Positions 3,320 to 18,212 of a DNA stretch of 18,212 bases are shown piece by piece. The position numbers were made by a program, and so were the translations under genes. Location: the IMG/VR virus record IMGVR_UViG_2617271087_000009; one strand, given 5' to 3'. Source of the DNA: a virus. Its lineage: Duplodnaviria > Heunggongvirae > Uroviricota > Caudoviricetes. The notes under the pieces were generated by a model that worked only from the letters and a program-made list of their open reading frames with translations, ran no database searches and had not been told where the DNA came from. Position 1 is the first letter of the stretch. Every line of letters starts with the position of its first letter.

Positions 3320-3597
3320 GTATTCGTATTGAAATTGGCGAGCGTTATGTCGTCACAAATGACCGTTTTCAGTTCATTTTGCAGGAGAGAAAGACCGCTG
3401 AAACCGGGAAGAATGCCGGTAAAGAGTGGCTGGATGTTGTCGGCTATTACCCCAAATTAAACCAGCTCGTTTCCGGTCTGATCCATCACGATATTTTGAG
3501 CGGTAACGCTGTCTCTTTTGAGGCGCTGAGCTCTCAGGTTGAGCAGCTCGGTCAGCAGTGTCTGACTGCGTTTCTCTGTGCGGGGAAATCTAAATGA
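3316..3597 (+). CDS. Small early hypothetical protein (P2 orf83 position)
   Basis: 93-aa ORF; ATG at 3316 overlaps the upstream stop (ATGA); GGAGA RBS at 3306-3310. Confidence 0.6.
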   Translation: MSIRIEIGERYVVTNDRFQFILQERKTAETGKNAGKEWLDVVGYYPKLNQLVSGLIHHDILSGNAVSFEALSSQVEQLGQQCLTAFLCAGKSK

Positions 3598-4602
3598 TAG
3601 TTGATACCCGCTGCCGAGCTGAAAGCTCTATCAATATTATTTCTGTTTCTGGCGGAAAGGATAGCCTTGCTCAATGGCTTGTTGGTATTGAAAGCGGTGT
3701 GCATTTTTTTGCCGGTTTTTGCAGACACCGGGCATGAGCATCCGCAGACAATGGAGTATCTCGATTATCTGGAGAACCGACTCGGGCCGGTTAAACGGGT
3801 TAAAGCTGACTTCTCCCGACAGATTGAAGGTAAGCGCAAGTTTATTGCTGAGAAATGGCCTGTTTCTCTGGTTGAAGAGTGCGGAATGTCTCCGGGGGAA
3901 GCGGCAGAGCGCATCAATTGTGCGCTGGAAATTCTCAAGCCTACTGGTATCCCATTTCTTGATTTGTGCATGTGGAAAGGGCGATTTCCTTCCACTAAAG
4001 CCAGATTTTGCACTTTTGACCTTAAACATGAGCCAGTACGTACTCAGGTCGTGTTACCTGCGCTTAATGAGTTTGATGAGGTAATTAGCTGGCAGGGGAT
4101 TCGCGCTCAGGAGTCTCCTGCGCGCGCGGGTCTGCCTGCCTGGGAAGAGGATGCGGACAATACGCCCGGGCTCCATGTATACCGTCCTATTCTGAACTGG
4201 ACGCATGAGGAGGTATTTGCATTTGCAAGACGTCATGGAATTAAACCTAATCCGTTATACCAGCAGGGATGCAGTCGTGTCGGTTGTATGCCCTGCATCC
4301 ACGCCAGAAAGTCTGAATTAGCTGAAATTTTTAGTCGCTGGCCGGAAGAGGTTAAGCGTGTTGCGGAATGGGAGCGACTTGTCGCCGCATGCTCCAGACG
4401 CGGAAATTCTACTTTCTTCCCGTCAACTCATGACCCGCGTCGTGCGGAACGCCGCATTGATATTATTACTGTCGATGCTTACGGAATTGAGTCTTATCGT
4501 GACTGGGCGATGACCACGCGTGGCGGGGCACAGTTTGATTTGCTGGCTTCGGTGAATGATAAGTCAGTTTGCAGTAGTGTCTATGCCGGTGTATGTGAAT
4601 GA
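3594..4602 (+). pseudogene. PAPS reductase / DndC-like PP-loop protein with Cys cluster, interrupted by a +1 frameshift in a T7 run (3704-3710); possibly a sequencing error
   Basis: Frame 0 from ATG 3594 (overlapping the orf83 stop) encodes MIVDTRCRAESSINIISVSGGKDSLAQWLVGIESGVHFF and stops at 3735-3737. Frame +1 continues FLPVFADTGHEHPQTMEY... to 4602. SGGKDS followed about 25 residues later by DTG...P.T is the PAPS-reductase family signature, but here it is split across frames. Removing one T from the T7 run restores one ORF of about 335 aa. C-terminal GCSRVGCMPC cysteine cluster. Confidence 0.7.
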
Positions 4603-6884
4603 GTCATTCTTTCCAGGAGCAATACACCTGCGTACCTCCGTCAGCATTTGCTGCAGGCACCGGTAAGGCGTTTACCGGTGCTTATGCATGGAACGCGCCA
4701 CGCGAGGCCGTCGGGCGCGAAAGACCCCTTACACGTGACGAGATGCGTCAGGTGCAAGGTGTTTTATCCACGATTAACCGCCTGCCTTACTTTTTGCGCT
4801 CGCTGTTTACTTCACGCTATGACTACATCCGGCGCAATAAAAGCCCGGTGCACGGGTTTTATTTCCTCACATCTACTTTTCAGCGTCGTTTATGGCCGCG
4901 CATTGAGCGCGTGAATCAGCGCCATGAAATGAACACCGACGCGTCGTTGCTATTTCTGGCAGAGCGTGACCACTATGCGCGCCTGCCTGGAATGAATGAC
5001 AAGGAGCTGAAAAAGTTTGCCGCCCGTATCTCATCGCAGCTTTTCATGATGTATGAGGAACTCTGCGATGCATGGGTTGATGCACATGGCGAAAAAGAAT
5101 CGCTGTTTACGGATGAGGCGCAGACTCACCTGTATGGTCATGTTGCTGGCGCTGCACGTGCTTTCAATATTTCCCCGCTCTACTGGAAAAAATACCGTAA
5201 AGGACAGATAACCACGAGGCAGGCATATTCTGCCATTGCCCGTCTGTTTAACGATGAGTGGTGGACTCATCAGCTTAAAGGCCAGCGTATGCGCTGGCAT
5301 GAGGCGTTACTGATTGCTGTCGGGGAGGTCAATAAAGACCGTTCTCCTTATGCCAGTAAACATGCCATTCGTGATGTGCGTGCGCGCCGCCAGGCAAATC
5401 TGGAGTTTCTTAAATCGTGTGACCTTGAAAACAGGGAAACCGGCGAACGCATCGACCTTATCAGTAAGGTGATGGGCAGTATTTCTAATCCTGAAATTCG
5501 CCGGATGGAGCTGATGAACACCATTGCCGGTATTGAGCGTTACGCCGCCGCAGAGGGTGATGTGGGGATGTTTATCACGCTGACCGCGCCGTCAAAGTAT
5601 CACCCGACACGTCAGGTCGGAAAAGGCGAAAGTAAAACCGTTCAGCTTAATCACGGCTGGAACGATGAGGCATTTAATCCAAAGGATGCGCAGCGTTATC
5701 TCTGCCGTATCTGGAGCCTGATGCGCACGGCATTCAAGGATAATGATTTACAGGTCTACGGTTTGCGAGTCGTCGAGCCACACCACGACGGAACGCCGCA
5801 CTGGCATATGATGCTTTTTTGTAATCCACGCCAGCGTAACCAGATTATTGAAATCATGCGTCGCTACGCGCTCAAAGAGGATGGCGACGAAAGAGGAGCT
5901 GCGCGAAACCGTTTTCAGGCAAAACACCTTAACCGGGGCGGTGCTGCAGGGTATATCGCGAAATACATCTCAAAAAACATCGATGGCTATGCACTGGATG
6001 GTCAGCTCGATAACGATACCGGCAGGCCGCTGAAAGACACTGCCGCGGCTGTTACCGCATGGGCGTCAACGTGGCGCATTCCGCAATTTAAAACGGTTGG
6101 CCTGCCGACAATGGGGGCTTACCGTGAACTACGCAAATTGCCTCGCGGCGTCAGCATTGCTGATGAGTTTGACGAGCGCGTCGAGGCTGCACGCGCCGCT
6201 GCAGACAGTGGTGATTTTGCGTTGTATATCAGCGCGCAGGGCGGGGCAAATGTCCCGCGCGATTGTCAGACTGTCAGGGTCGCCCGTAGCCCGTCGGATG
6301 ACGTTAACGAGTACGAGGAAGAAGTCGAGAGAGTGGTCGGCATTTACGCGCCGCATCTCGGCGCGCGTCATATTCATATCACCAGAACGACGGACTGGCG
6401 CATTGTTCCGAAAGTGCCGGTCGTTGAGCCTTTGACTTTAAAAAGCGGCATCGCCGCGCCTCGGAGTCCTGTCAATAACTGTGGAAAGCTCACCGGTGGT
6501 GATACTTCGTTACCGGCTCCCACACCTTCTGAGCACGCCGCAGCAGTGCTTAATCTGGTAGATGACGGTGTTATCGAATGGAATGACCCGGAGGTCGTGA
6601 GGGCGCTCAGAGGTGCATTAAAACACGGCCTGAGAAGACCAAACCGTCAGCAAAGAAACGGAAGCCCGTTAAAACCGCATGAAATAGCGCCATCGGCCAG
6701 ACTGACCCGGTCTGAACGATTGCAAATCACCCGTATCCGCGTTGACCTTGCTCAGAACGGTATCAGGCCGCAGCGATGGGAGCTTGAGGCGCTGGCGCGT
6801 GGCGCGACCGTAAATTATGACGGGAAAAAATTCACGTATCCGGTCGCTGATGAGTGGTCGGGATTCTGGCATCAATTTGAGTAA
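4599..6884 (+). CDS. A: Replication initiation protein A (rolling-circle HUH endonuclease), 761 aa
   Basis: 761 aa equals P2 gpA length; HUH-like motif (GTPHWHMMLF) and tyrosine-containing active-site region (GYIAKYISKNIDGY); start overlaps the upstream stop (ATGA). Confidence 0.9.
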   Translation: MSHSFQEQYTCVPPSAFAAGTGKAFTGAYAWNAPREAVGRERPLTRDEMRQVQGVLSTINRLPYFLRSLFTSRYDYIRRNKSPVHGFYFLTSTFQRRLWPRIERVNQRHEMNTDASLLFLAERDHYARLPGMNDKELKKFAARISSQLFMMYEELCDAWVDAHGEKESLFTDEAQTHLYGHVAGAARAFNISPLYWKKYRKGQITTRQAYSAIARLFNDEWWTHQLKGQRMRWHEALLIAVGEVNKDRSPYASKHAIRDVRARRQANLEFLKSCDLENRETGERIDLISKVMGSISNPEIRRMELMNTIAGIERYAAAEGDVGMFITLTAPSKYHPTRQVGKGESKTVQLNHGWNDEAFNPKDAQRYLCRIWSLMRTAFKDNDLQVYGLRVVEPHHDGTPHWHMMLFCNPRQRNQIIEIMRRYALKEDGDERGAARNRFQAKHLNRGGAAGYIAKYISKNIDGYALDGQLDNDTGRPLKDTAAAVTAWASTWRIPQFKTVGLPTMGAYRELRKLPRGVSIADEFDERVEAARAAADSGDFALYISAQGGANVPRDCQTVRVARSPSDDVNEYEEEVERVVGIYAPHLGARHIHITRTTDWRIVPKVPVVEPLTLKSGIAAPRSPVNNCGKLTGGDTSLPAPTPSEHAAAVLNLVDDGVIEWNDPEVVRALRGALKHGLRRPNRQQRNGSPLKPHEIAPSARLTRSERLQITRIRVDLAQNGIRPQRWELEALARGATVNYDGKKFTYPVADEWSGFWHQFE
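6456..6475 (+). other. Candidate origin / A-protein nick region inside the A coding sequence
   Basis: GCGCCTCGGAGTCCTGTCAA matches my recollection of the P2 ori sequence, which is known to lie within the 3' part of gene A. Recall-based, not computed. Confidence 0.4.
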
Positions 6885-6973
6885 GGATCTCATCTATACA
6901 GTATAAGTAGTTTTGACTGTAATTGATTGTTTTTTATATGGTTGCATGCATTAAATCTACGTCAATATCATTA

Positions 6974-6982
6974 TGTTATAAT
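6974..6982 (+). promoter_or_regulatory. Extended -10 promoter element (TGtTATAAT) upstream of the cargo operon
   Basis: TG-n-TATAAT read directly at 6974-6982, about 29 nt upstream of the ATG at 7011 with GGAGA RBS at 7001-7005; AT-rich context; no good -35. Confidence 0.45.
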
Positions 6983-7010
6983 GCATTACTTAAAAATGTT
7001 GGAGATAAAA

Positions 7011-7202
7011 ATGTTAAAGCCTGCAGATGTTGTTTGTTTGAAAAGCGGTGGATTTAAAATGACTGTATCTGACTCTACTGAAACTCATGCTAAATGTATT
7101 TGGCATGATAAAGAAGGAGTTTTGCACGAGGAGTCATTCTCCATTGATTTACTGGAAATAGCAGAGAGTAAAAGTGGTATGCTTTGTCGTCCACGTAAGT
7201 GA
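7011..7202 (+). CDS. Small protein (63 aa), YodC/DUF2158-like, first gene of the cargo island
   Basis: ATG at 7011 with GGAGA RBS. The pattern V.LKSGG.KMTV ... C.W.D ... F recalls the DUF2158 (YodC) small-protein family, from memory only. AT-rich codon usage unlike the flanking phage genes. Confidence 0.6.
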   Translation: MLKPADVVCLKSGGFKMTVSDSTETHAKCIWHDKEGVLHEESFSIDLLEIAESKSGMLCRPRK

Positions 7203-7229
7203 ATCATAATAAAATTCACGGGGGAAAGT

Positions 7230-7910
7230 ATGAAACAATACAGCGAATTAGAAAACAATGTTAAGAGATTCATTGTTGAGCATGAAAAAGGGATTTCTAT
7301 TGATGATATTCATCATAAGTTCCGGATGAAGGATGGTCAGAATCGCAAGATGGCAGATTATCTTATTGATAATAAAAAGATAATTTTGGAGATGAAAAGT
7401 CTTTTTTCTGACAGGGTCAAGAATGTCAATGATAAACTGAATGAGTTGGTTAAAACTGATAATTGGCTTGCAAAAAACTGGCATGGTGCTATTCATTTAG
7501 AAGAGTTGATAAAAAGACACCCAGACTCAAAGCGATTTAGAAATGATATAATGAACTTTGCTTATGAAAATATTAAAACAAAGATAGTTAAGGAAGCTAA
7601 TAAGCAAATAAATGCAACAAAGGATGTTTTGGATTTAAATGACTCGATTGGCGGGTTGATTTTGTTAAATGATAATGTCTTTTCACATGAGTCTAATTAT
7701 TTGTCAGATGAAATATTATATTTGCTAGGCACAAAGAGATATTCGAGTGTTGAGTTTGTGGTTTATATTGCAAAATTGATTGATAAACAGGTTGATGTTT
7801 GTGTGCTACTTGACAGTCAATCTAAAAATAAAAATTATATTGAATGGTATATGAATAATGTTTTTTTATTGAACTGGGCGTCTTTTAATAAATATGCAAT
7901 AAAGATGTAG
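7230..7910 (+). CDS. Hypothetical protein (226 aa), cargo gene of unknown function
   Basis: ATG at 7230 with GGGGGAAAG RBS, 27 nt after the upstream stop, so probably co-transcribed. K/N/E-rich, AT-rich; no motif I recognise, no predicted transmembrane segment. Confidence 0.7.
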   Translation: MKQYSELENNVKRFIVEHEKGISIDDIHHKFRMKDGQNRKMADYLIDNKKIILEMKSLFSDRVKNVNDKLNELVKTDNWLAKNWHGAIHLEELIKRHPDSKRFRNDIMNFAYENIKTKIVKEANKQINATKDVLDLNDSIGGLILLNDNVFSHESNYLSDEILYLLGTKRYSSVEFVVYIAKLIDKQVDVCVLLDSQSKNKNYIEWYMNNVFLLNWASFNKYAIKM

Positions 7911-8163
7911 TGGTGTGGATGGATATGAAATGAGTCAACCAAGATGCACCTTGGTCAGTAATCTCATGTGAGATACCACATATAACACCAAAAGTGTCAG
8001 GTTGATGGCCATTGTTCACCGTTTACAGCAGATTATGGTCAACGAAAATCTGACGCCTGACGAGCTGGTCGGGTGTGCCGAAATAGTCTGGGATAATTAC
8101 GGGCGGTTTAACTATATCGGTCAGTCCAGAGTTGCGCCACCACCACGCAGACGATAGAGAACG

Positions 8164-8197
8164 CCGCCAGTCGTGAAACTTGTTTTCAGGCTGGCGG
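8164..8197 (-). terminator. Possible weak intrinsic terminator for the 313-aa cargo gene
   Basis: CCGCCAG ... CTGGCGG 7-bp GC-rich stem with a long structured loop, about 33 nt downstream of the minus-strand stop, followed on the minus strand by CGUUCUCUAUCG (only moderately U-rich). Confidence 0.3.
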
Positions 8198-8229
8198 AGT
8201 TGAACAACGAGCGAAGTGAGGCGTTAGCA

Positions 8230-9171
8230 TTAAGTTAATTTTAATGAATGGTACTCTATCGAGCTGATTGTAGATGCGATATATTTACGATCATTTACAG
8301 AGAGTATTGCCGCTAGTAGACGACATACCAGAGCCTGCATTTGTAGCAATATATCGCTACCATATTGACAATCATTGATACTAGAGAAACCAAGCGGTTG
8401 CCCATTAAAAATGGCTTCATGAAAATTATCATTGCGTATAACTGAAACATTACATTCATCTGTTGCCCATGACGGGATTTTTACACCGTAATTTTCGCAC
8501 ATCCAATATACTCTATTTTGATGAGATGGTTTTTTCTCTTTAATGACTTTATCCCTTTCATCCCATGCTATAGCAAAACAGCAATCAAGAGCCATATAAA
8601 GATACTGGAATTTCTCAAAGGAAAGGTATAGTGGGTTATGTGACAGGAATAGGGAGTGTATCACCGCAGCTATTCTTTTAATGGAGCGATCATCTTTTTG
8701 TTTGTCTTTTATATAGTTAAGTGCTAGCTCTATTACTTCTTTTTCAGAGCATCCAACGAGAATAAAGTCGGTTAACTTAGTGGGCTTGATAGTGGTTGCA
8801 TCAAGAAAACCAGCGTCAGTGGTTGTCAATCTTATACCCTTGAAAAAAGAGAGGCACCACACAACAAAGTTGAGAGTTTCTAACGAGGATGTGTTTTTTA
8901 ATTTTAGTGTGTGCGTTTTGGGCATGCCGAATACTCGGTAACTATAAGGCATTGTGCATGTGTCACCATTAAGGTTATATACCTTTCGATTCCCAGGGTA
9001 TATCCAACCATTAACAACGTTTTTATCATTGTTAATACGTTCCACGTTCTCAATAAGACCGGGTAAAGTACGCAAAGAAAATTGTTCAGTCTCAATGTTA
9101 ACTTCTACTGGATAGTATCCAAACTCCGAAATAATCTCATTTGGTTGCTGTTCGTCAACTTCACCTTGCAT
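8230..9171 (-). CDS. Hypothetical protein (313 aa), cargo gene of unknown function
   Basis: ATG (reverse complement of 9169-9171) preceded by GGAGAAAG RBS; convergent with the 7011-7910 operon; AT-rich. It contains an R-x4-H motif (RNDNFH, residues about 246-251) reminiscent of HEPN Rx4-6H, which is weak evidence. Confidence 0.7.
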   Translation of the reverse strand: MQGEVDEQQPNEIISEFGYYPVEVNIETEQFSLRTLPGLIENVERINNDKNVVNGWIYPGNRKVYNLNGDTCTMPYSYRVFGMPKTHTLKLKNTSSLETLNFVVWCLSFFKGIRLTTTDAGFLDATTIKPTKLTDFILVGCSEKEVIELALNYIKDKQKDDRSIKRIAAVIHSLFLSHNPLYLSFEKFQYLYMALDCCFAIAWDERDKVIKEKKPSHQNRVYWMCENYGVKIPSWATDECNVSVIRNDNFHEAIFNGQPLGFSSINDCQYGSDILLQMQALVCRLLAAILSVNDRKYIASTISSIEYHSLKLT

Positions 9172-9409
9172 AACTTTCTCCGTTCAAAAACAGGCACGAT
9201 AATTCTCGTAAGCCTATCATGTTCGCAAAGTATCCATACCTGTGGATTTTGTAAATTTAAGTTGATTTGTCATTAAATAAGCCGTTGCATGCAACAAGTG
9301 AATGTTTTTGCATGCGTCGGGGATGTCCGTTCAGGCTGCGTGCGGTCAGGACTGGTGCGGATCCATAGTATCTATGCAACTGCATTAAAACCGCCCCATG
9401 AAGCGGGCG

Positions 9410-9428
9410 GGCGAGGCGGGGAAAGCAC
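9410..9428. other. cos: cos site (19-nt cohesive-end sequence GGCGAGGCGGGGAAAGCAC)
   Basis: Exact match to my recollection of the P2/P4 19-nt cohesive end, in the expected position downstream of Q and adjacent to the tin/old-equivalent locus. Confidence 0.55.
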
Positions 9429-9589: not shown

Positions 9590-10624
9590 TCAGCCGTTGT
9601 CAGTGTCAAGTGAGTAGTTTTTAAAGCGGATGACCTCCTGACCGAGCCAGTCGTTTATCTCGCGGATCCTGTCCTGTAACGGGATAAGCTCATTGCGGAC
9701 AAAGACCTTTGCCACTTTCTCAATATCACCCAGCGACCCGACGTTCTCCGGCTTGCCACCCATCAACTGAAAGGGGATGCGGTGCGCGTCCAGCAGGTCA
9801 GCGGCGCTGGCTTTTTTGATATTAAAAAAATCGTCCTTCGTCGCCACTTCACTGAGGGGGATAATTTTAATGCCGTCGGCTTTCCCCTGTGGGGCATAGA
9901 GAAACAGATTTTTAAAGTTATTGCGGCCTTTCGACTTCACCATGTTTTCGCGAAGCATTTCGATATCGTTGCGATCCTGCACGGCATCGGTGACGTACAT
10001 GATGTATCCAGCATGTGCGCCATTTTCGTAATACTTGCGGCGGAACAGCGTGGCCGACTCATTCAGCCAGGCAGAGTTAAGGGCGCTGAGATATTCCGGC
10101 AGGCCGTACAGCTCCTGATTAATATCCGGCTCCAGCAGGTGAAACACGGAGCCGGACGCGAAGGCTGTCGGCTCGTTGAAGGACGGCACCCACCAGTAAA
10201 CATCCTCCTCCACGCCACGGCGGGTATATTTTGCCGGTGAGGTTTCCAGCCTGATAACCTTACCGGTGGTGCTGTAACGCTTTTCCAGAAACGCATTACC
10301 GAACACCAGAAAATCCAGCACAAAGCGGCTGAAATCCTGCTGGGAAAGCCACGGGTGCGGAATAAACGTTGAAGCCAGAATATTACGTTTGACGTAAATC
10401 GGTGAGCTGTGATGTACGGCAGCACGCAGGCTTTTTGCCAGACCGGTAAAGCTGACCGGTGGCTCATACCATCTGCCGTTACTGATGCACTCGACGTAAT
10501 CCAGAATGTCACGGCGGTCGAGTACCGGCACCGGCTCACCAAAGGTGAATGCCTCCATTTTCGGGGCGCTGGCGGTCATTGTTTTCACCGCAGGTTGCGG
10601 TGTTTTCCCTTTTTTCTTGCTCAT
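9590..10624 (-). CDS. Q: Portal protein Q (344 aa)
   Basis: 344 aa equals P2 gpQ length; start ATG overlaps the P stop (ATGA); adjacent to terminase. Confidence 0.9.
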   Translation of the reverse strand: MSKKKGKTPQPAVKTMTASAPKMEAFTFGEPVPVLDRRDILDYVECISNGRWYEPPVSFTGLAKSLRAAVHHSSPIYVKRNILASTFIPHPWLSQQDFSRFVLDFLVFGNAFLEKRYSTTGKVIRLETSPAKYTRRGVEEDVYWWVPSFNEPTAFASGSVFHLLEPDINQELYGLPEYLSALNSAWLNESATLFRRKYYENGAHAGYIMYVTDAVQDRNDIEMLRENMVKSKGRNNFKNLFLYAPQGKADGIKIIPLSEVATKDDFFNIKKASAADLLDAHRIPFQLMGGKPENVGSLGDIEKVAKVFVRNELIPLQDRIREINDWLGQEVIRFKNYSLDTDNG

Positions 10625-12395
10625 CAGTAAAACTCCAGAATGGTGGATGTCAGCGGGGTGCTGATACCGGCGGTGAGTGGCTCATTTAACAGGGCGTGCA
10701 TGGTCGCCCAGGCGAGGTCGGCGTGGCTGGCTTCCTCGCTGCGACTGGCCTCATAGGTGGCGCTGCGTCCGCTGCTGGTCATGGTCTTGCGGATAGCCAT
10801 AAACGAGCTGGTGATGTCGGTGGCGCTGACGTCATATTCCAGACAGCCACGGCGGATAACGTCTTTTGCCTTGAGCACCATTGCGGTTTTCATTTCCGGT
10901 GTGTAGCGGATATCGCGCGCGGCGGGATAGAACGAGCGCACGAGCTGGAACACGCCGACACCGAGGCCGGTGGCATCAATACCGATGTATTCGACGTTAT
11001 ATTTTTCGGTGAGTTTGCGGATGGATTCAGCCTGGGTGGCAAAGTCCATGCCTTTCCACTGGTGACGCTCAAGTATCCTGAATTTGCCACCGGCCACCAC
11101 CGGCGGTGCCAGCACCACGCATCCGGCGCTGTCGCCACGGTGTGACGGGTCGTAACCAATCCATACCGGGCGGGAGCCGAACGGATTGGCGGCAAACGGT
11201 GCATAGTCTTCCCATTCTTCCAGCGTGTCGACCATGCAGCGTTGCAGCTCCTCGAACGGGAACACCGATGCCTTGTCGTCAACAAATTCACACATGAACA
11301 GGTTTTTAAAATCGTCGGCGCTGTTTTCGCGTTTGAGCTGCTCAATGTCGAACAGTGTGCAGCCACCTTTCAGGGCGTCCTCAATGGTGACAATCTGCCG
11401 CCACTGGCCGTCCGCACAGAGAAGCCCACCGGCAAGGGCGTTATGACTGACGTCGATTTCCACACGTTCGGCGGCGCTGGCGCGTCCCCGGTTGAACAGT
11501 TCACCCGACCAGAACGGGTAGCGTCGTGCGCCAGTGTGGACGGGGTGGAGAAATAGGTCGAGCGCAGGTGACTCTGTGAGGCCATACCTGATGCCACCTT
11601 ACGCAGAACCTGAAAATTTGGGATCCAGAAAATCTCGTCGACGTACAGGTCACCGTTATGGCTCTGTGCGGTGTTGGAGTTGGTGCCGAGAAAAATCAGT
11701 TTTGCGCCGTTATTGCCCAGGACAATCGGGTCACCGGTCAGGTCAACGTCAACCAGACGGGCAAAGGCGATGATGTATTCACGGAACACATACGCCTGCG
11801 TTTTACTGGCCGACAGAAAAATCTGGTTATGACCGGTTTTCAGGGCGCGCAGCAGCGCCTCGCGGGAAAAATAAAATGTCGCGCCAATCTGGCGGGATTT
11901 CAGGATATCGCGGATGCGGTGCTCAAGCCCGGCGCGATACCAGTGCAACTGATAGTCGAAAGACTGCTCAAAGAAAATCTGCTCCAGCTTTTCGATAGCC
12001 TCGTCACTGAAAAAATTCTTTTTCGGTTTGCGCCGCCCGCCTTTGTTGCGGTTAGCGACGTTCGGATTAAGGTCTGCCTCGTTGCCGGTCTGGCTGTAGC
12101 GGTTTACCCGTGCCAGTCGTTCAATCTGGCGTCCGAGCAGGTCAATTTCCTTGAAGTCACCGCCGGTTTTCTGCGGTTTGATAATGAGCTGGGTCAGCCG
12201 CGCTTCCAGACTCATTTCGACACGGCTGATGGGGGCAACGCTGTCCCAGCCGTCGCGCTGTTTCCAGCTCTGCACCGTCGGGCGTTTCATCTGCAACATG
12301 GCGGCAATCTGCGGCACGGAAAACCCCTGCCAGTACAGCAGCGCCGCCTGACGACGCGGGTCGTGTAAAAGAGTGGTGTCTGTGGTGATGGTCAT
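10624..12395 (-). pseudogene. P: Terminase large (ATPase) subunit P, split by an apparent 1-nt deletion near 11515-11530; possibly a sequencing error
   Basis: N-terminal part from ATG 12393-12395 (MTITTDTTLLHDPRR...) runs in one frame to a stop at 11370. The C-terminal part (…YPFWSGELFNRGRASAAERVEIDVSHNALAGG…) is in another frame that is open from 11598 to the stop at 10624-10626. The coding span is 1769 nt, one short of the 1770 needed for the 590-aa P2 gpP. Sensible protein sequence switches frames at about AHDA|YPFW. Confidence 0.8.
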
Positions 12396-12568
12396 GAATA
12401 CCTCGCCGTGATGAATACACGGCAAGGCTACTGAGTCGCGCCCCGCGATTCGCTAAGGTGCTGTTGTGTCAGTGATAAGCCATCCGGGACTGATGGCGGA
12501 GGATGCGCATCGTCGGGAAACTGATGCCGACATGTGACTCCTCTAATCACTATTCAGGACTCCTGACA
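12396..12568. promoter_or_regulatory. Divergent late-promoter region (P_P leftward, P_O rightward), expected Ogr-dependent
   Basis: Intergenic region between divergent P and O, as in P2. A TGT-N12-CAC element (12533-12550) partly resembles the TGT-N12-ACA late-promoter upstream motif. Not resolved further. Confidence 0.35.
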
Positions 12569-13423
12569 ATGGCAAAAAAAGTCTCAAAATTCTTTCGTAT
12601 CGGCGTTGAGGGTGACACCTGTGACGGGCGTGTCATCAGTGCGCAGGATATTCAGGAAATGGCCGAAACCTTTGACCCGCGAGTCTATGGTTGCCGCATT
12701 AACCTGGAACATCTGCGCGGCATCCTGCCTGACGGTATTTTTAAGCGTTATGGCGATGTGGTCGAACTGAAGGCCGAAAAGATTGACGATGATTCGGCGC
12801 TGAAAGGCAAATGGGCGCTGTTTGCGAAAATCACCCCGACCGATGACCTTATCGCGATGAACAAGGCCGCGCAGAAGGTCTACACCTCAATGGAAATTCA
12901 GCCGAACTTTGCCAACACCGGCAAATGTTATCTGGTGGGGCTGGCCGTCACCGATGACCCGGCAAGCCTCGGCACGGAATACCTGGAATTCTGCCGCACG
13001 GCAAAACACAACCCTCTGAACCGCTTCAAATTAAGCCCTGAAAACCTGATTTCAGTGGCAACGCCCGTTGAGCTGGAATTTGAAGACCTGCCTGAAACCG
13101 TGTTCACCGCCCTGACCGAAAAGGTGAAATCCATTTTTGGCCGCAAACAGGCCAGCGATGACGCCCGTCTGAATGACGTGCATGAAGCGGTGACCGCTGT
13201 TGCTGAACATGTGCAGGAAAAACTGAGCGCCACTGAGCAGCGCCTCGCTGAGATGGAAACCGCCTTTTCCGCACTTAAGCAGGCGGTGACTGACAGGGCG
13301 GATGAAACCAGCCAGGCATTCACCCGCCTGAAAAACAGTCTCGACCACACCGAAAGTCTGACCCAGCAGCGCCGCAGCAAGGCCACCGGTGGTGGCGGTG
13401 ACGGCCTGATGACGAACTGCTGA
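12569..13423 (+). CDS. O: Capsid scaffold protein O (284 aa)
   Basis: Internal ATG at 12569 (MAKKVSKFFRIGVEGDTCDGRV...) gives 284 aa, the P2 gpO length; coiled-coil-like C-terminus. Confidence 0.9.
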   Translation: MAKKVSKFFRIGVEGDTCDGRVISAQDIQEMAETFDPRVYGCRINLEHLRGILPDGIFKRYGDVVELKAEKIDDDSALKGKWALFAKITPTDDLIAMNKAAQKVYTSMEIQPNFANTGKCYLVGLAVTDDPASLGTEYLEFCRTAKHNPLNRFKLSPENLISVATPVELEFEDLPETVFTALTEKVKSIFGRKQASDDARLNDVHEAVTAVAEHVQEKLSATEQRLAEMETAFSALKQAVTDRADETSQAFTRLKNSLDHTESLTQQRRSKATGGGGDGLMTNC

Positions 13424-13481
13424 CCGGCGTCAGTCAGTCCGGGAAAACCTTCACGATTAACCCTTAATTTCAGGAAAAACT

Positions 13482-14555
13482 ATGCGCCAGGAAACCCGCT
13501 TTAAATTTAATGCTTACCTGTCCCGTGTTGCCGAACTGAACGGCATTGATGCCGGTGATGTGTCGAAAAAATTCACTGTTGAACCGTCGGTCACCCAGAC
13601 CCTGATGAACACCATGCAGGAGTCCTCTGACTTTCTGACCCGCATCAACATTGTGCCGGTCAGCGAAATGAAAGGGGAAAAAATTGGTATTGGTGTCACC
13701 GGCTCCATCGCCAGCACCACCGACACCGCCGGTGGCACCGAGCGTCAGCCGAAGGACTTCTCGAAGCTGGCGTCAAACAAGTACGAATGCGACCAGATTA
13801 ACTTCGATTTTTATATCCGCTACAAAACGCTGGACCTGTGGGCGCGTTATCAGGATTTCCAGCTCCGTATCCGTAACGCCATTATCAAACGCCAGTCCCT
13901 TGATTTCATCATGGCCGGTTTTAACGGCGTGAAGCGTGCCGAAACCTCTGACCGCAGCAGCAATCCGATGCTGCAGGATGTGGCGGTCGGCTGGCTGCAG
14001 AAATACCGCAATGAAGCCCCGGCTCGCGTGATGAGCAAGGTCACTGACGAGGAAGGCAGCACCACCTCTGAGGTCATCCGCGTGGGTAAGGGCGGTGATT
14101 ATGCCAGCCTCGATGCACTGGTGATGGATGCGACCAACAACCTGATTGAGCCGTGGTATCAGGAAGACCCTGACCTTGTGGTGATTGTGGGGCGTCAGCT
14201 ACTGGCGGACAAGTATTTCCCCATCGTCAACAGGGAGCAGGATAACAGCGAAATGCTGGCTGCTGACGTCATCATCAGCCAGAAACGCATCGGTAACCTG
14301 CCAGCGGTACGCGTCCCGTACTTCCCGGCGGATGCGATGCTCATCACGAAGCTGGAAAACCTGTCTATCTACTACATGGATGACAGCCATCGCCGCGTGA
14401 TTGTGGAAAACCCGAAACTCGACCGCGTGGAGAACTACGAGTCAATGAACATTGATTACGTGGTGGAAGACTACGCCGCCGGTTGTCTGGTGGAAAAAAT
14501 CAAGGTCGGTGATTTCTCCACACCGGCTAAGGCGACCGCAGAGCCGGGAGCGTAA
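13482..14555 (+). CDS. N: Major capsid protein N (357 aa)
   Basis: 357 aa equals P2 gpN length; conserved position after O. Confidence 0.9.
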   Translation: MRQETRFKFNAYLSRVAELNGIDAGDVSKKFTVEPSVTQTLMNTMQESSDFLTRINIVPVSEMKGEKIGIGVTGSIASTTDTAGGTERQPKDFSKLASNKYECDQINFDFYIRYKTLDLWARYQDFQLRIRNAIIKRQSLDFIMAGFNGVKRAETSDRSSNPMLQDVAVGWLQKYRNEAPARVMSKVTDEEGSTTSEVIRVGKGGDYASLDALVMDATNNLIEPWYQEDPDLVVIVGRQLLADKYFPIVNREQDNSEMLAADVIISQKRIGNLPAVRVPYFPADAMLITKLENLSIYYMDDSHRRVIVENPKLDRVENYESMNIDYVVEDYAAGCLVEKIKVGDFSTPAKATAEPGA

Positions 14556-14558
14556 CCG

Positions 14559-15302
14559 ATGACGAGTCCCGCACAGCGCCACATGATGCGGGTCTCGGCA
14601 GCGATGACCGCGCAGCGGGAAGCCGCCCCGCTGCGACATGCAACTGTCTATGAGCAGATGCTGGTCAAGCTGGCCGCAGACCAGCGCACACTGAAAGCGA
14701 TTTATTCAAAAGAGCTTAAGGCCGCGAAAAAGCGCGAACTGCTGCCGTTCTGGTTGCCGTGGGTGAACGGTGTGCTGGAGCAGGGCAAAGGTGCACAGGA
14801 TGACATTCTGATGACGGTCATGCTGTGGCGTCTGGATACCGGCGATATTGCCGGTGCGCTGGAGATTGCCCGTTATGCCCTGAAGTACGGTCTGACCATG
14901 CCGGGTAAACACCGCCGCACCCCGCCGTACATGTTCACCGAGGAGGTCGCACTCGCGGCCATGCGTGCCCACGCTGCCGGTGAATCTGTGGATATCCGCC
15001 TGCTGACGGAGACCCTTGAACTGACCGCCACGGCTGACATGCCTGATGAAGTGCGCGCAAAGCTGCACAAAATCACCGGTCTGTTTCTGCGTGACGCTGG
15101 TGATGCCGCCGGTGCGCTGGCTCACCTGCAACGTGCGACACAGCTCGACTGTCAGGCAGGCGTCAAAAAAGAGATTGAACGACTGGAGCGGGAGCTGAAA
15201 CCGAAGCCGGAGCCGCAGCCCAAAGCGGTCACCCGCGCCCCGCGTAAGACCCGGAGCGTGACACCGGCAAAACGTGGACGCCCGAAAAAGAAAGCCAGTT
15301 AA
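14559..15302 (+). CDS. M: Terminase small (endonuclease) subunit M (247 aa)
   Basis: 247 aa equals P2 gpM length; basic C-terminal tail (RKTRSVTPAKRGRPKKKAS). Confidence 0.9.
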   Translation: MTSPAQRHMMRVSAAMTAQREAAPLRHATVYEQMLVKLAADQRTLKAIYSKELKAAKKRELLPFWLPWVNGVLEQGKGAQDDILMTVMLWRLDTGDIAGALEIARYALKYGLTMPGKHRRTPPYMFTEEVALAAMRAHAAGESVDIRLLTETLELTATADMPDEVRAKLHKITGLFLRDAGDAAGALAHLQRATQLDCQAGVKKEIERLERELKPKPEPQPKAVTRAPRKTRSVTPAKRGRPKKKAS

Positions 15303-15401
15303 CAACCGAATGCGCCCCGCGCCAGGGCGGCACGCCGGTCAGTGAGGGTGAATCACCTGACACTGCACCGGCGTCCACCGCCCGACTTTTCAGAGGTAGT
15401 C

Positions 15402-15911
15402 ATGATGACGCTGATTATTCCGCGAAAGGAGGCTCCCGTGTCCGGTGAGGGTACGGTGGTCATCCCGCAACCGGCAGGCGACGAGCCGGTGATTAAAAAC
15501 ACGTTCTTTTTTCCCGATATCGACCCGAAGCGCGTCCGGGAACGTATGCGCCTTGAGCAGACCGTCGCCCCCGCCCGTCTGCGTGAGGCCATCAAGTCAG
15601 GCATGGCGGAGACGAATGCGGAGCTGTACGAGTACCGCGAACAGAAAATTGCCGCCGGTTTTACGCGTCTGGCGGACGTTCCGGCGGACGACATCGACGG
15701 TGAAAGCATCAAAGTTTTTTACTACGAGCGCGCCGTGTGTGCGATGGCGACCGCGTCGCTTTATGAGCGTTATCGCGGCGTGGATGCCAGTGCGAAAGGC
15801 GACAAGAAGGCCGACAGCATTGACAGCACCATTGATGAACTGTGGCGGGATATGCGCTGGGCGGTGGCGCGTATCCAGGACAAGCCGCGCTGCATCGTGA
15901 GTCAAATCTGA
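15402..15911 (+). CDS. L: Capsid completion protein L (169 aa)
   Basis: ATG at 15402 (MMTLIIPRKEAP...) gives 169 aa, the P2 gpL length; AGAGG RBS at 15392-15396. Confidence 0.85.
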   Translation: MMTLIIPRKEAPVSGEGTVVIPQPAGDEPVIKNTFFFPDIDPKRVRERMRLEQTVAPARLREAIKSGMAETNAELYEYREQKIAAGFTRLADVPADDIDGESIKVFYYERAVCAMATASLYERYRGVDASAKGDKKADSIDSTIDELWRDMRWAVARIQDKPRCIVSQI

Positions 15912-16114
15912 TGAAGACCTTTGCGCTACAGGGTGACACGCTCGACGCCATTTGTGTCCGGTATTACGGGCGCACTGAGGGCGTGGTTGAGACCGTGCTC
16001 GCCGCAAATCCGGGACTGGCTGAACTGGGTGCGGTGCTGCCACACGGCACCGCCGTCGAACTGCCCGACGTTCAGACCGCGCCCGTGGCTGAAACTGTCA
16101 ATCTGTGGGAGTAA
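15911..16114 (+). CDS. X: Tail protein X (67 aa)
   Basis: MKTFALQGDTLDAICVRYYGRTEGVVETVLAANPGL... is 67 aa, the P2 gpX length; start overlaps the L stop (TGATGA). Confidence 0.85.
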   Translation: MKTFALQGDTLDAICVRYYGRTEGVVETVLAANPGLAELGAVLPHGTAVELPDVQTAPVAETVNLWE

Positions 16115-16117
16115 CGC

Positions 16118-16411
16118 ATGACAGCAGAAGAAAAAAGCGTCCTGTCGCTTTTCATGATTGGGGTGCTGATTGTTGTCGGCAAGGTGCTTGCCGGTGGTGA
16201 ACCCATCACCCCGCGTCTGTTTATCGGGCGCATGTTGCTCGGCGGTTTTGTCTCGATGGTTGCCGGTGTTGTTCTGGTGCAGTTTCCTGACCTGTCACTG
16301 CCTGCGGTGTGCGGCATCGGTTCCATGCTGGGTATCGCCGGTTATCAGGTGATTGAGATTGCCATTCAGCGCCGCTTTAAGGCAGGGGGAAACCGTAATG
16401 CCGGTAATTAA
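16118..16411 (+). CDS. Y: Holin Y
   Basis: 97-aa hydrophobic protein with transmembrane-like stretches (LSLFMIGVLIVVGKVLAGG; FVSMVAGVVLVQF) and a charged C-terminus; GGGAG RBS; first gene of the lysis cassette. Confidence 0.85.
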   Translation: MTAEEKSVLSLFMIGVLIVVGKVLAGGEPITPRLFIGRMLLGGFVSMVAGVVLVQFPDLSLPAVCGIGSMLGIAGYQVIEIAIQRRFKAGGNRNAGN

Positions 16412-16895
16412 CACGCATCAGAATATCGCCGCCTTTCTCGACATGCTGGCCGTGTCCGAAGGGACGGCGAATCATCCGCTGACGAAAAACCGGGGCTATG
16501 ACGTGATAGTCACCGGACTGGACGGAAAGCCGGAAATTTTCACCGACTACAGTGACCACCCGTTCGCGCATGGCCGACCGGCGAAGGTGTTTAACCGTCG
16601 CGGTGAAAAATCCACGGCCTCCGGTCGCTATCAGCAGCTTTACCTGTTCTGGCCGCACTACCGCAAACAGCTTGCCCTGCCGGATTTCAGTCCGTTGTCA
16701 CAGGACAGGCTCGCCATTCAGTTGATCCGCGAACGCGGTGCACTGGATGACATCCGGGCGGGACGCATTGAGCGCGCCATTTCACGCTGTCGCAATATCT
16801 GGGCGTCCCTGCCGGGTGCCGGTTACGGTCAGCGTGAGCATTCACTGGAAAAACTGGTCACCGTCTGGCGTACCGCCGGCGGCGTACCGGCTTAA
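16398..16895 (+). CDS. K: Endolysin K (165 aa)
   Basis: ATG at 16398 (MPVINTHQNIAAFLDMLAVSEGT...) gives 165 aa, the P2 gpK length; AGGGGGA RBS; overlaps the Y 3' end. Confidence 0.85.
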   Translation: MPVINTHQNIAAFLDMLAVSEGTANHPLTKNRGYDVIVTGLDGKPEIFTDYSDHPFAHGRPAKVFNRRGEKSTASGRYQQLYLFWPHYRKQLALPDFSPLSQDRLAIQLIRERGALDDIRAGRIERAISRCRNIWASLPGAGYGQREHSLEKLVTVWRTAGGVPA

Positions 16896-16909
16896 ACGGA
16901 GTAAACACC

Positions 16910-17335
16910 ATGAAGAAATTATCCCTTTCACTGATGCTGAACGTGTCGCTGGCGCTGATGCTGGCACTGTCCCTGATTTACCCGCAGAGCGTGGCCGTCA
17001 GTTTTGTCGCCACCTGGGCGATTCTGGCGACGGTTATCTGTGTGGTTGCCGGTGGTGTCGGCGTGTATGCCACGGAGTATGTGCTGGAACGCTACGGGCG
17101 GGAGCTGCCGCCGGAATCGCTGGCCGTGAAGATTGTCACGTCGCTGTTTTTGCAGCCGGTGCCGTGGCGCAGACGGGCGGCGGCTCTGGTGGTGATGGTG
17201 GCGACGTTTATCTCGCTGGTCGCTGCCGGGTGGATTTTTACTGCGCTGATTTACCTCGTGGCGTCGGTGTTCTTCCGGCTGATACGTACGGCCTGCCGTC
17301 AGCGTTTTGAGGGGCGGGAACCATGTCAAAGCTGA
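16910..17335 (+). CDS. lysA: LysA (141 aa), membrane protein modulating lysis timing
   Basis: 141-aa multi-TM hydrophobic protein in the P2 lysA position; GGAG RBS. Confidence 0.8.
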   Translation: MKKLSLSLMLNVSLALMLALSLIYPQSVAVSFVATWAILATVICVVAGGVGVYATEYVLERYGRELPPESLAVKIVTSLFLQPVPWRRRAAALVVMVATFISLVAAGWIFTALIYLVASVFFRLIRTACRQRFEGREPCQS

Positions 17336-17748
17336 TGATTGTACTGGTTGTGTTGTTATCGCTGGCGGTGGCGGGGCTGTTTCTGGTGAAACATAAAAAT
17401 GCCAGCCTGCGCGCCTCGCTGGACAGGGCGAACAACGTCGCCAGCGGGCAGCAGACGACTATCACCATGCTGAAAAATCAGCTTCATGTTGCCCTCACCA
17501 GAGCAGACAAAAACGAGCTGGCGCAGGTGGTACTGCGTCAGGAACTGGAGAACGCCGCGAAGCGTGAAGCACAGCGCGAGAAAACCATCACGAGGTTACT
17601 CAATGAAAACGAAGATTTTCGCCGCTGGTACGGCGCTGACCTGCCTGATGTTGTGCGCCGGTTGCACCAGCGTCCGGCCTGCACCGACGCCAGTGATTGT
17701 CGCCAACGCCTGCCCGAAAGTGAGCCTTTGCCCGATGCCGGGCAGTGA
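17323..17748 (+). CDS. lysB: LysB (141 aa), Rz-like i-spanin
   Basis: N-terminal TM segment (MIVLVVLLSLAVAGLFLV) followed by a charged helical periplasmic domain; overlaps the lysA 3' end. Confidence 0.8.
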   Translation: MSKLMIVLVVLLSLAVAGLFLVKHKNASLRASLDRANNVASGQQTTITMLKNQLHVALTRADKNELAQVVLRQELENAAKREAQREKTITRLLNENEDFRRWYGADLPDVVRRLHQRPACTDASDCRQRLPESEPLPDAGQ

Positions 17749-17875
17749 CCCGCAGACGAACGGCGATTTAAGTGCTGATATCCGGCAGCTTGAGAACGCG
17801 CTGGCACGCTGTGCCAGCCAGGTAAAAATGATTAAACACTGTCAGGACGAAAACGATGCTTGCGTATTACCGTGA
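17603..17875 (+). CDS. lysC: LysC (90 aa), Rz1-like o-spanin lipoprotein, overlapping lysB in the +1 frame
   Basis: ATG at 17603 with GAGGT RBS; signal peptide plus lipobox (LMLCAGC); Pro-rich mature region; begins inside lysB and extends past it. Confidence 0.7.
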   Translation: MKTKIFAAGTALTCLMLCAGCTSVRPAPTPVIVANACPKVSLCPMPGSDPQTNGDLSADIRQLENALARCASQVKMIKHCQDENDACVLP

Positions 17876-18212
17876 AGGAGATCGGTGAGTAACATCGATG
17901 GAGATCGGTTCGTGTCACTTTCACAGAACCGTTTTTAAATTACCTTCACTGATCTCCTTCGGTCAACGGAGATTGTATTTTCCGCATTGATTCTCCTTTA
18001 AGTTCGATCTTGATACTGCCATGAACCAGTCGATCTAGGATGGCATCCGCATGTGTGGAGTCTCCGATCATTTTGTACCAGTTTTCCACCGGCAACTGGC
18101 TCACTACGATGATTGAGCCTCGTTGGTACATCAGATCCACTATTTCCAGCAGGTCGCTACGCTGTTCTGATGAGAGAGGTTCCAGCCCCCAGTCATCCAG
18201 AAGCAGCAGATC
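17876..18212 (-). mobile_element. IS21-family insertion sequence, right end; continues beyond the window
   Basis: Contains the istB 3' end. The 70 bp between the lysC stop and the istB stop carries repeated motifs (GGAGATCGGT at 17877-17886 and 17900-17909, and an inverted GGAGATCAG copy at about 17947-17958), typical of multi-repeat IS21 termini. The exact boundary is not determined. Confidence 0.65.
17946..18212 (-). CDS. istB: IstB (IS21-family transposition helper ATPase), C-terminal part; N-terminus off-window
   Basis: Minus-strand translation from the window edge: DLLLLDDWGLEPLSSEQRSDLLEIVDLMYQRGSIIVVSQLPVENWYKMIGDSTHADAILDRLVHGSIKIELKGESMRK... This carries the Walker B (hhhhDD) region and conserved C-terminus of IstB. 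The track's 64-aa ORF is only the tail. Confidence 0.8.
   Translation of the reverse strand, partial: DLLLLDDWGLEPLSSEQRSDLLEIVDLMYQRGSIIVVSQLPVENWYKMIGDSTHADAILDRLVHGSIKIELKGESMRKIQSPLTEGDQ

Follow-up and report, generated by a model that had tools for sequence, protein, structure and literature searches.

What do the AT-rich genes lodged between the replication gene A and cos of a P2-like prophage do, and do they act as one system? The question is raised by an 18,212-nucleotide (nt) stretch of DNA (IMG/VR virus record IMGVR_UViG_2617271087_000009), hereafter called the window, which is a P2-like prophage of Escherichia coli and shares 99.98% identity over 17.9 kb with a prophage of strain 4/0. 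Three open reading frames (ORFs) of 63, 226 and 313 amino acids (aa) lie between gene A and cos/portal gene Q, and RefSeq annotates the same three genes at this position in the strain 4/0 prophage. A first-pass annotation of the window had described an AT-rich island of three unassignable genes at the recognised tin/old hotspot of P2 and had proposed them as strong candidates for an undescribed defence or superinfection-exclusion module. The location in the A-to-cos interval, the three intact ORFs, the convergent orientation of the 313-aa one and the abrupt change in guanine-plus-cytosine (GC) content between the gene A stop (6884) and cos, from 0.535 to 0.31-0.37, were confirmed. Defence or exclusion is still the best reading of their role, but the claims of novelty and of a single module were not supported. 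The island most likely consists, although this is far from certain, of two independent single-effector anti-phage or superinfection-exclusion cassettes: a PD-(D/E)xK deoxyribonuclease (DNase), here ORF226, with a DUF2158 accessory protein, and a sensor-plus-HEPN ribonuclease (RNase), here ORF313.

Two cassettes and the P2 backbone between them

The coordinates of the features are listed in Table 1. Cassette 1 stands in place of orf91 (DUF3850) and the first ~17 codons of an orf92-like backbone gene. In phages in which this 68-aa gene is intact, as it is in Yersinia phage vB_YpM_46 and other E. coli prophages, the order is A, orf91 (DUF3850), orf92-like gene, cargo and cos. The 51-aa ORF of the window is the 3' part of this conserved P2-family gene (phrog_11386, function-less); RefSeq calls the ORF "meiotically up-regulated 80 protein" (WP_371128002), a name that was transferred spuriously. 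The window has only the block at 7970-8227 and cos in common with P2, Wphi, vB_YpM_46 and E. coli prophages, with the breakpoint inside the orf92-like gene; cassette replacement is thereby seen directly, and the cargo carried in the interval by other P2-like phages comprises tin/old, a methylase, DUF3850, a DinI-like protein and ImmA/IrrE. The 284-bp block and its short ORF had been overlooked in the first-pass annotation, which treated the island as one three-gene module and saw no likeness to the genes around P2 orf91; a GC-normal backbone remnant in fact separates two independently exchanged cassettes, and the truncated orf92-like gene is such a likeness.

The island resembles P2 old/tin/orf91 in its locus and in consisting of AT-rich accessory genes, which in P2 are expressed from the prophage and have an exclusion function. 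There is, however, no sequence or domain kinship with old or tin: Old is an ATPase-TOPRIM nuclease, and tin encodes a different protein. The orf91 gene is deleted in the window, where the truncated orf92-like gene alone remains.

Among 5426 complete E. coli genomes, ORF313 alleles were found in 93, always at the cos-proximal end of the P2 hotspot. Their left-hand partners are of at least four kinds, including DUF3850 with IS2, a DinI-like set, and an ImmA/IrrE peptidase with a hypothetical protein; cassette 1 is absent from 66 of the 93. The DUF2158 gene was found in 27 genomes of the same set, each time within a complete island and directly upstream of ORF226. ORF313 alleles also occur in deposited Yersinia phage genomes, including vB_YpM_46, and the deposited genome of phage vB_EcoM-720R8 carries the whole island at 99.6% identity. 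The island is 100% identical in strains of the sequence type 131 (ST131) kind, e.g., JJ2434.

The same cassette, with the same gene order and the same A-to-cos position, is present in the "TO-region" of P2-EC67 (GenBank AM157369, deposited in 2006 from ECOR67; ORF73, ORF226 and ORF313). The two copies are unequally related along their length: cassette 1 shows 98-99% DNA identity and the promoter side of ORF313 99%, whereas identity falls to 85% in the coding region of ORF313. The ORF313 proteins share 81% of their residues, and the divergence is confined to the C-terminal half. When window positions 8230-9171 are compared with 1408-2349 of AM157369, codons 1-150 show 93-100% protein identity and codons ~150-313, the HEPN-like half, about 37-80% protein and ~73% DNA identity. 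Because all of the divergence from P2-EC67 falls in codons ~150-313, the alignment suggests intragenic recombination that exchanged the effector half of ORF313 while the N-terminal half was kept. The independent distribution, together with the unequal identity to P2-EC67, indicates from sequence comparison that the DUF2158-ORF226 pair and ORF313 are separately exchangeable modules.

Table 1. Features of the A-to-cos interval and its surroundings (positions in the window)
Feature	Position	Strand	GC content	Remarks
Gene A (replication)	4599-6884	+	0.535	ORF call; left limit of hotspot
Whole island	6885-9409		0.369
Cassette 1, AT-rich insert	6885-7945		0.314	Left edge is the A stop codon; right edge is the start of vB_YpM_46/Wphi homology
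Sigma-70-like promoter candidate TTGACT-18-TATGGT	6913-6942	+		Upstream of DUF2158 gene; consensus scan 9/12, pattern match only
DUF2158 (YodC-family) protein, 63 aa	7011-7202	+		Pfam PF09926; phrog_3261, E 1e-19; RefSeq WP_001547483
ORF226, 226 aa	7230-7910	+	0.300	Predicted PD-(D/E)xK nuclease
ORF226 catalytic candidates	D43 7356-7358; E54 7389-7391; K56 7395-7397; Q126 7605-7607
P2 backbone remnant, 284 bp	7946-8229	+	0.50	89-92% conserved in P2, Wphi, P22H4 and others
5'-truncated orf92-like ORF, 51 aa	8002-8157	+		C-terminal 51 residues of the 68-aa vB_YpM_46 gene
Stem-loop between convergent units	8163-8198			-24 kcal/mol, z -3.2
ORF313, 313 aa, one-gene cassette 2	8230-9171	-	0.372	N-terminal beta-rich and C-terminal helical domain; putative HEPN-type RNase
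R246-N247-x3-H251-E252 motif	8416-8436	-		In helical domain; invariant
Sigma-70-like promoter candidate ATGACA-16-CAAAAT	9246-9273	-		Upstream of ORF313; consensus scan, pattern match only
P2 cos core GGCGAGGCGGGGAAAGCAC	9410-9428	+		Exact 19-nt match; right limit of hotspot
Portal gene (Q)	9590-10624	-		ORF call
Morphogenesis genes	9590-17860		0.568
End of IS21-family element (IstB C-terminus)	17861-18212	-		Pfam E 1.3e-24

ORF313 and ORF226 as predicted nucleases

The Pfam, NCBIfam, PADLOC (2023 models) and PHROGs libraries were run on all four ORFs of the island, and only DUF2158 and function-less PHROGs were matched. The earlier statement that no known defence family is represented was thus borne out in the PADLOC, Pfam and NCBIfam defence models. 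The description of the proteins as unassignable was not, since the 63-aa protein scores above the Pfam threshold for DUF2158/YodC, ORF226 carries a PD-(D/E)xK motif and ORF313 an RNxxxH motif of the HEPN type.

The ORF313 family comprises at least 699 clusters across Gammaproteobacteria, in Enterobacteriaceae, Aeromonas, Pseudomonas, Acinetobacter, Stenotrophomonas and others, with members of ~310-325 aa, none of which has a Pfam match. An alignment of 46 sequences (~45% identity) contains 49 invariant columns. The segment R246-N247-D-N-F-H251-E252 conforms to the Rx4-6H pattern; of its residues, R, N, H and E are unchanged in all 46 sequences and kept in the P2-EC67 allele. The ratio of nonsynonymous to synonymous substitution rates (dN/dS) among ORF313 alleles is 0.28, and ORF313 is therefore a real, constrained gene. 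With the HEPN abortive-infection RNases (ApeA, AbiD/AbiF, HepT, Csm6 and PrrC/RloC) it shares a one-gene layout, a C-terminal helical domain that bears an Rx4H motif, and a non-catalytic N-terminal domain; on the other hand, its N-terminal domain, a fold-orphan with ~25 invariant residues, has no recognisable relative, the fold similarity is marginal, and the ApeA and HEPN models are unmatched.

On this motif and domain layout, we consider it fairly probable that ORF313 is a HEPN-type enzyme. The competing view, that RNxxxHE sits in a new fold as part of some other site for catalysis or binding, is held only tentatively and is clearly the less likely of the two. It draws on the absence of sequence matches to HEPN models, which extends to the 46 family members and to their isolated C-terminal domains at E values (expectation values) up to 10. 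The ApeA model of PADLOC-DB does not match ORF313 either, and the family is linked to ApeA solely through UniRef, in which one homologue is entered as "Apea-like HEPN domain-containing protein". A Foldseek search of the ORF313 model against the PDB gave nothing significant. The model has a predicted local distance difference test score (pLDDT) of 83, and the motif begins a helix after three long helices, in a segment that has low pLDDT and is poorly modelled. Many residues away from the motif are invariant as well (H87, R79, R114, D124, D135, H172, H217 and R220), and half of these belong to the N-terminal domain. When the ORF313 alignment was used for another round of profile searching, the matches listed were confined to the same close family and included no Pfam-annotated distant relatives. 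Searched against the PDB, the family profile gave only a marginal match, between residues ~243-283 (window ~8323-8445) and the first 45 residues of E. coli ribonucleotide reductase R2 (NrdB; E 0.01, domain E 0.2), which is probably due to chance. The matching profile, "..S..RND.lhEalFf.ePlG", overlaps the putative catalytic motif.

A gap of 27 nt separates the DUF2158 gene from ORF226 downstream of it, which is equipped with a GGGGGAAAG ribosome-binding site of its own. An exhaustive search yielded 181 representatives at E <1e-3; close relatives are found in Enterobacteriaceae only, and viral and species-genome scans returned only identical islands and one Serratia prophage. In an alignment of 61 sequences (20-82% identity), D43, E54, K56 and Q126 are the sole invariant residues, and D25, D61, T130 and N147 are nearly invariant. 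The D...ExK motif is also kept in all 11 fusion or long homologues that were checked for catalytic residues. The long homologues have an Mrr_cat restriction-nuclease domain ahead of this one and SEC-C motifs in addition, and they keep the same residues. In the predicted model, the catalytic residues are placed on strands E44-46 and E51-58 of what appears to be a restriction-endonuclease-like alpha/beta fold, and an 80-residue helical insertion bears the invariant Q126-x3-T130. No family model of the four libraries, and thus no curated PD-(D/E)xK model, matches ORF226 or its 61 homologues; one homologue gives a sub-threshold DpnII-MboI match, and a sequence-profile search of the PDB with ORF226 found nothing. 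We nevertheless assign the nuclease fold with high confidence. The window codon at 7461-7463 is AAT (N78), whereas strain 4/0 and most database copies have AGT (S78); the exact protein of the window is WP_032334975 of E. coli IS29.

Single-protein PD-(D/E)xK defence nucleases (13 DefensePredictor-validated systems, the PD nucleases of Vassallo 2022, and NucC) share with ORF226 the D...ExK core and the restriction-endonuclease fold. Like them, ORF226 is small, stand-alone, prophage-borne and without a methylase partner. None of the hidden Markov models of these families matches it, however, and it differs in its 80-residue insertion and in the preceding DUF2158 gene in P2.

The 63-aa protein belongs to DUF2158, with 33.1 bits against a PF09926 gathering threshold of 22.3 (E 4.7e-8) and coverage of model positions 4-48 of 50.

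Probable anti-phage cargo and its alternatives

The genomic neighbours of both families point to a defence role. Homologues of ORF313 lie next to Gabija (GajA/GajB) in a Pseudomonas aeruginosa island and next to DUF4238 in Acinetobacter. In Serratia fonticola and metagenomic prophages, ORF226 homologues are located 30 bases downstream of a cI-type repressor gene and are convergent with a DUF4238 gene. A position downstream of cI is that of lysogen-expressed exclusion genes, e.g., lambda rexAB. Genes for SLATT, Mrr, GIY-YIG and DUF4145 proteins surround another ORF226 homologue, and one is carried on Pantoea IncFII plasmids. The presence of DUF4238 beside ORF226 homologues in two prophages and beside an ORF313 homologue in Acinetobacter is a notable recurrence across unrelated hosts (loci L013, 6712-7539; L030, 4711-5538; L021, 4907-5917). 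DUF4238 has been validated as a one-gene defence from the same P2 hotspot (Rousset 2022, PMC9122126).

The two cassettes would accordingly be read as independent, horizontally exchanged, lysogen-expressed anti-phage cargo. Cassette 1, transcribed rightward, would provide the DUF2158 small protein and the ORF226 nuclease; the latter may cut incoming phage DNA, or any DNA once triggered, with DUF2158 as a dispensable accessory or regulator. Cassette 2, transcribed leftward from the cos side, would consist of the self-contained ORF313, whose N-terminal domain may sense infection and whose C-terminal HEPN-like domain may cleave RNA (tRNA, rRNA or mRNA), an abortive-infection stop of phage growth. 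The sequence comparisons show where the cassettes lie, where they end, that they are exchanged as modules, which folds and motifs can be assigned and which genes are their neighbours. The functional evidence for both proteins is one of association, and from it we infer an anti-phage phenotype as well as the nuclease activities with their substrates and triggers.

The literature already contains this cassette, contrary to its first description as undescribed. Besides the P2-EC67 record, the survey of Rousset et al. 2022 (PMC9122126), which reports 1,650 arrangements at the P2 locus with validated defences among them, enters the proteins of 226 and 63 aa together as system 63, "DUF2158" (Table S5B), with 67 occurrences among 18,150 loci, and includes strain 4/0 under the four-gene arrangement "DUF2158 + hypothetical x3". 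Neither the P2-EC67 record nor this entry assigns a function. The cos core of the window is also present in the cos-containing clones of Table S2 of the same study. Table S10 of the DefensePredictor study (PMC13092281) lists an ORF313 allele, WP_001161722, as a "predicted novel defense gene" with a log-odds of 9.68 (cutoff 4); the representative of its cluster given there is WP_001620979, the 99.6% allele. This entry is absent from the complete accessible tables of tested systems of that study, and ORF226 and DUF2158 have no match in the accessible portion of its tables. Another three-gene arrangement of the same hotspot, Rst_3HP ("hp+hp+hp", active against P1; Rousset 2022), likewise comprises unannotated genes; identity with it was rejected, since its proteins are ~340, 350 and 230 aa long and unrelated in sequence (Table S2A), and PADLOC gave no match here.

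Several points weigh against a defence role. Because about one-quarter of P2 hotspots carry non-defence cargo, e.g., partition systems and toxins (Rousset 2022, PMC9122126), location alone is no proof of defence, and the cassette is not among the systems that were cloned in that study. Only 45% of the tested DefensePredictor predictions gave a phenotype (PMC13092281). Among the PADLOC, Pfam and NCBIfam models, none for defence or HEPN families matches ORF313 or any of its 46 homologues, and no phenotype data or functional study for any of the three proteins was found in the literature searched. The ORF313 homologue of Aeromonas lies alone among housekeeping-type genes.

The genes may instead be non-defence cargo, for example morons that act on host physiology or a nuclease with which the phage itself degrades host DNA, recombines or counters defences, a reading that we regard as unlikely. 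The partition systems and toxins of the hotspot, the many functions of PD-(D/E)xK and HEPN folds, the lack of a known phenotype and the embedding of the Aeromonas homologue in ordinary chromosomal genes are consistent with it; the patchy, mobile distribution of both families, the repeated adjacency of homologues to validated defence genes (Gabija and, twice, DUF4238), the lysogen-expressed position of one ORF226 homologue downstream of cI and the high DefensePredictor score listed for the ORF313 family argue otherwise. Related P2-like phages are without these genes, which are therefore not needed for the phage life cycle.

Cassette 1 could also be a toxin-antitoxin or addiction pair, with the DUF2158 protein as antitoxin and ORF226 as toxin, that stabilises the prophage. 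The small gene precedes the nuclease gene by 27 nt in one apparent operon, it is directly upstream of ORF226 in all 27 E. coli genomes that carry it, and the two phage records in which tblastn detected it both also contain ORF226. The obligate partnership of a type II toxin-antitoxin system is not seen, however. ORF226 homologues of 41-64% identity with intact catalytic residues, on Pantoea plasmids and in Serratia and metagenomic prophages, occur without a DUF2158 gene and without ORF313, so that an ORF226-type nuclease is tolerated in its absence and DUF2158 is not an obligate antitoxin. DUF2158/YodC is, moreover, a widespread stand-alone small protein, with a chromosomal, sigma-S-regulated member in Salmonella. 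We judge such a pair to be distinctly improbable, and toxin-antitoxin and defence roles are in any case mutually compatible.

That all three genes form one co-operating defence system is very improbable. In the complete E. coli genomes the DUF2158-ORF226 pair never occurs without ORF313 (27/27), but ORF313 has unrelated partners in the other 66 genomes and in Yersinia phages and stands by itself in Aeromonas, Pseudomonas and Acinetobacter. ORF226 homologues occur without it, the two units are convergent with a P2 backbone remnant between them, and copies of cassette 1 that are nearly identical (99%) have ORF313 alleles of only 85% identity beside them.

The prophage and the meaning of its cargo

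The counterpart prophage of strain 4/0 adjoins yegS/yegR. The first-pass annotation had noted that the terminase and the tail operon appear disrupted while the cargo is intact, and this was confirmed, with the reservation that 1-bp differences could be sequencing errors: compared with strain 4/0, in which the terminase gene encodes an intact protein of 590 aa, the window lacks one base at 11521, which splits the gene, and an IS21-family element starts at 17861, 3 bases inside the tail gene after lysC and exactly where homology to strain 4/0 ends. Three single-base indels separate the window from strain 4/0, at 1037, 11521 and 16381, all at short base runs; one splits the terminase large subunit (10624-12396), one changes the end of the holin gene, and one is intergenic, upstream of the integrase. 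Such indels may be (long-read) sequencing errors instead of real pseudogenisation, and the prophage that carries the island may be decaying. A gene of the phosphoadenosine-phosphosulfate-reductase family lies at 3594-4602, just upstream of gene A, and is annotated by RefSeq as frameshifted in the strain 4/0 prophage; an accessory gene of this type in a P2-like early operon may serve in DNA modification or counter-defence. Neither the Rfam scan nor the tRNA scan revealed a retron-like or other RNA, and a search for attachment-type or cassette-bounding repeats found chance-level short matches only.

The cassette has already been catalogued and in part predicted computationally, and nuclease cargo is expected in the P2 hotspot; the assignment is a sound lead instead of a surprise and opens no new conceptual question. 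According to a 2026 study (PMC13586616), 19% of P2-like elements are without recognisable defence genes, and such loci were tested in P4 only, where 6 of 8 were active. The value of the present assignments lies in the testable catalytic residues that they provide for both proteins and in the case that they make for testing ORF226 and ORF313 separately. It is unlikely that each protein will prove to be a mechanistically new one-protein immune system, in which the N-terminal domain of ORF313 would act as a novel sensor of a phage or host cue and control a divergent HEPN-like nuclease, and DUF2158/YodC would be a small regulator of a PD-(D/E)xK nuclease; if the latter were true, it would be the first function for the DUF2158/YodC family. 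The 2023 PADLOC models and Pfam detect neither the ORF313 family nor the ORF226 family, and, if the anti-phage role were confirmed, two widespread unannotated families would join the catalogue of anti-phage nucleases. Since ST131-type clinical E. coli and Salmonella carry the cassette, it could influence the host range of phages used in therapy.

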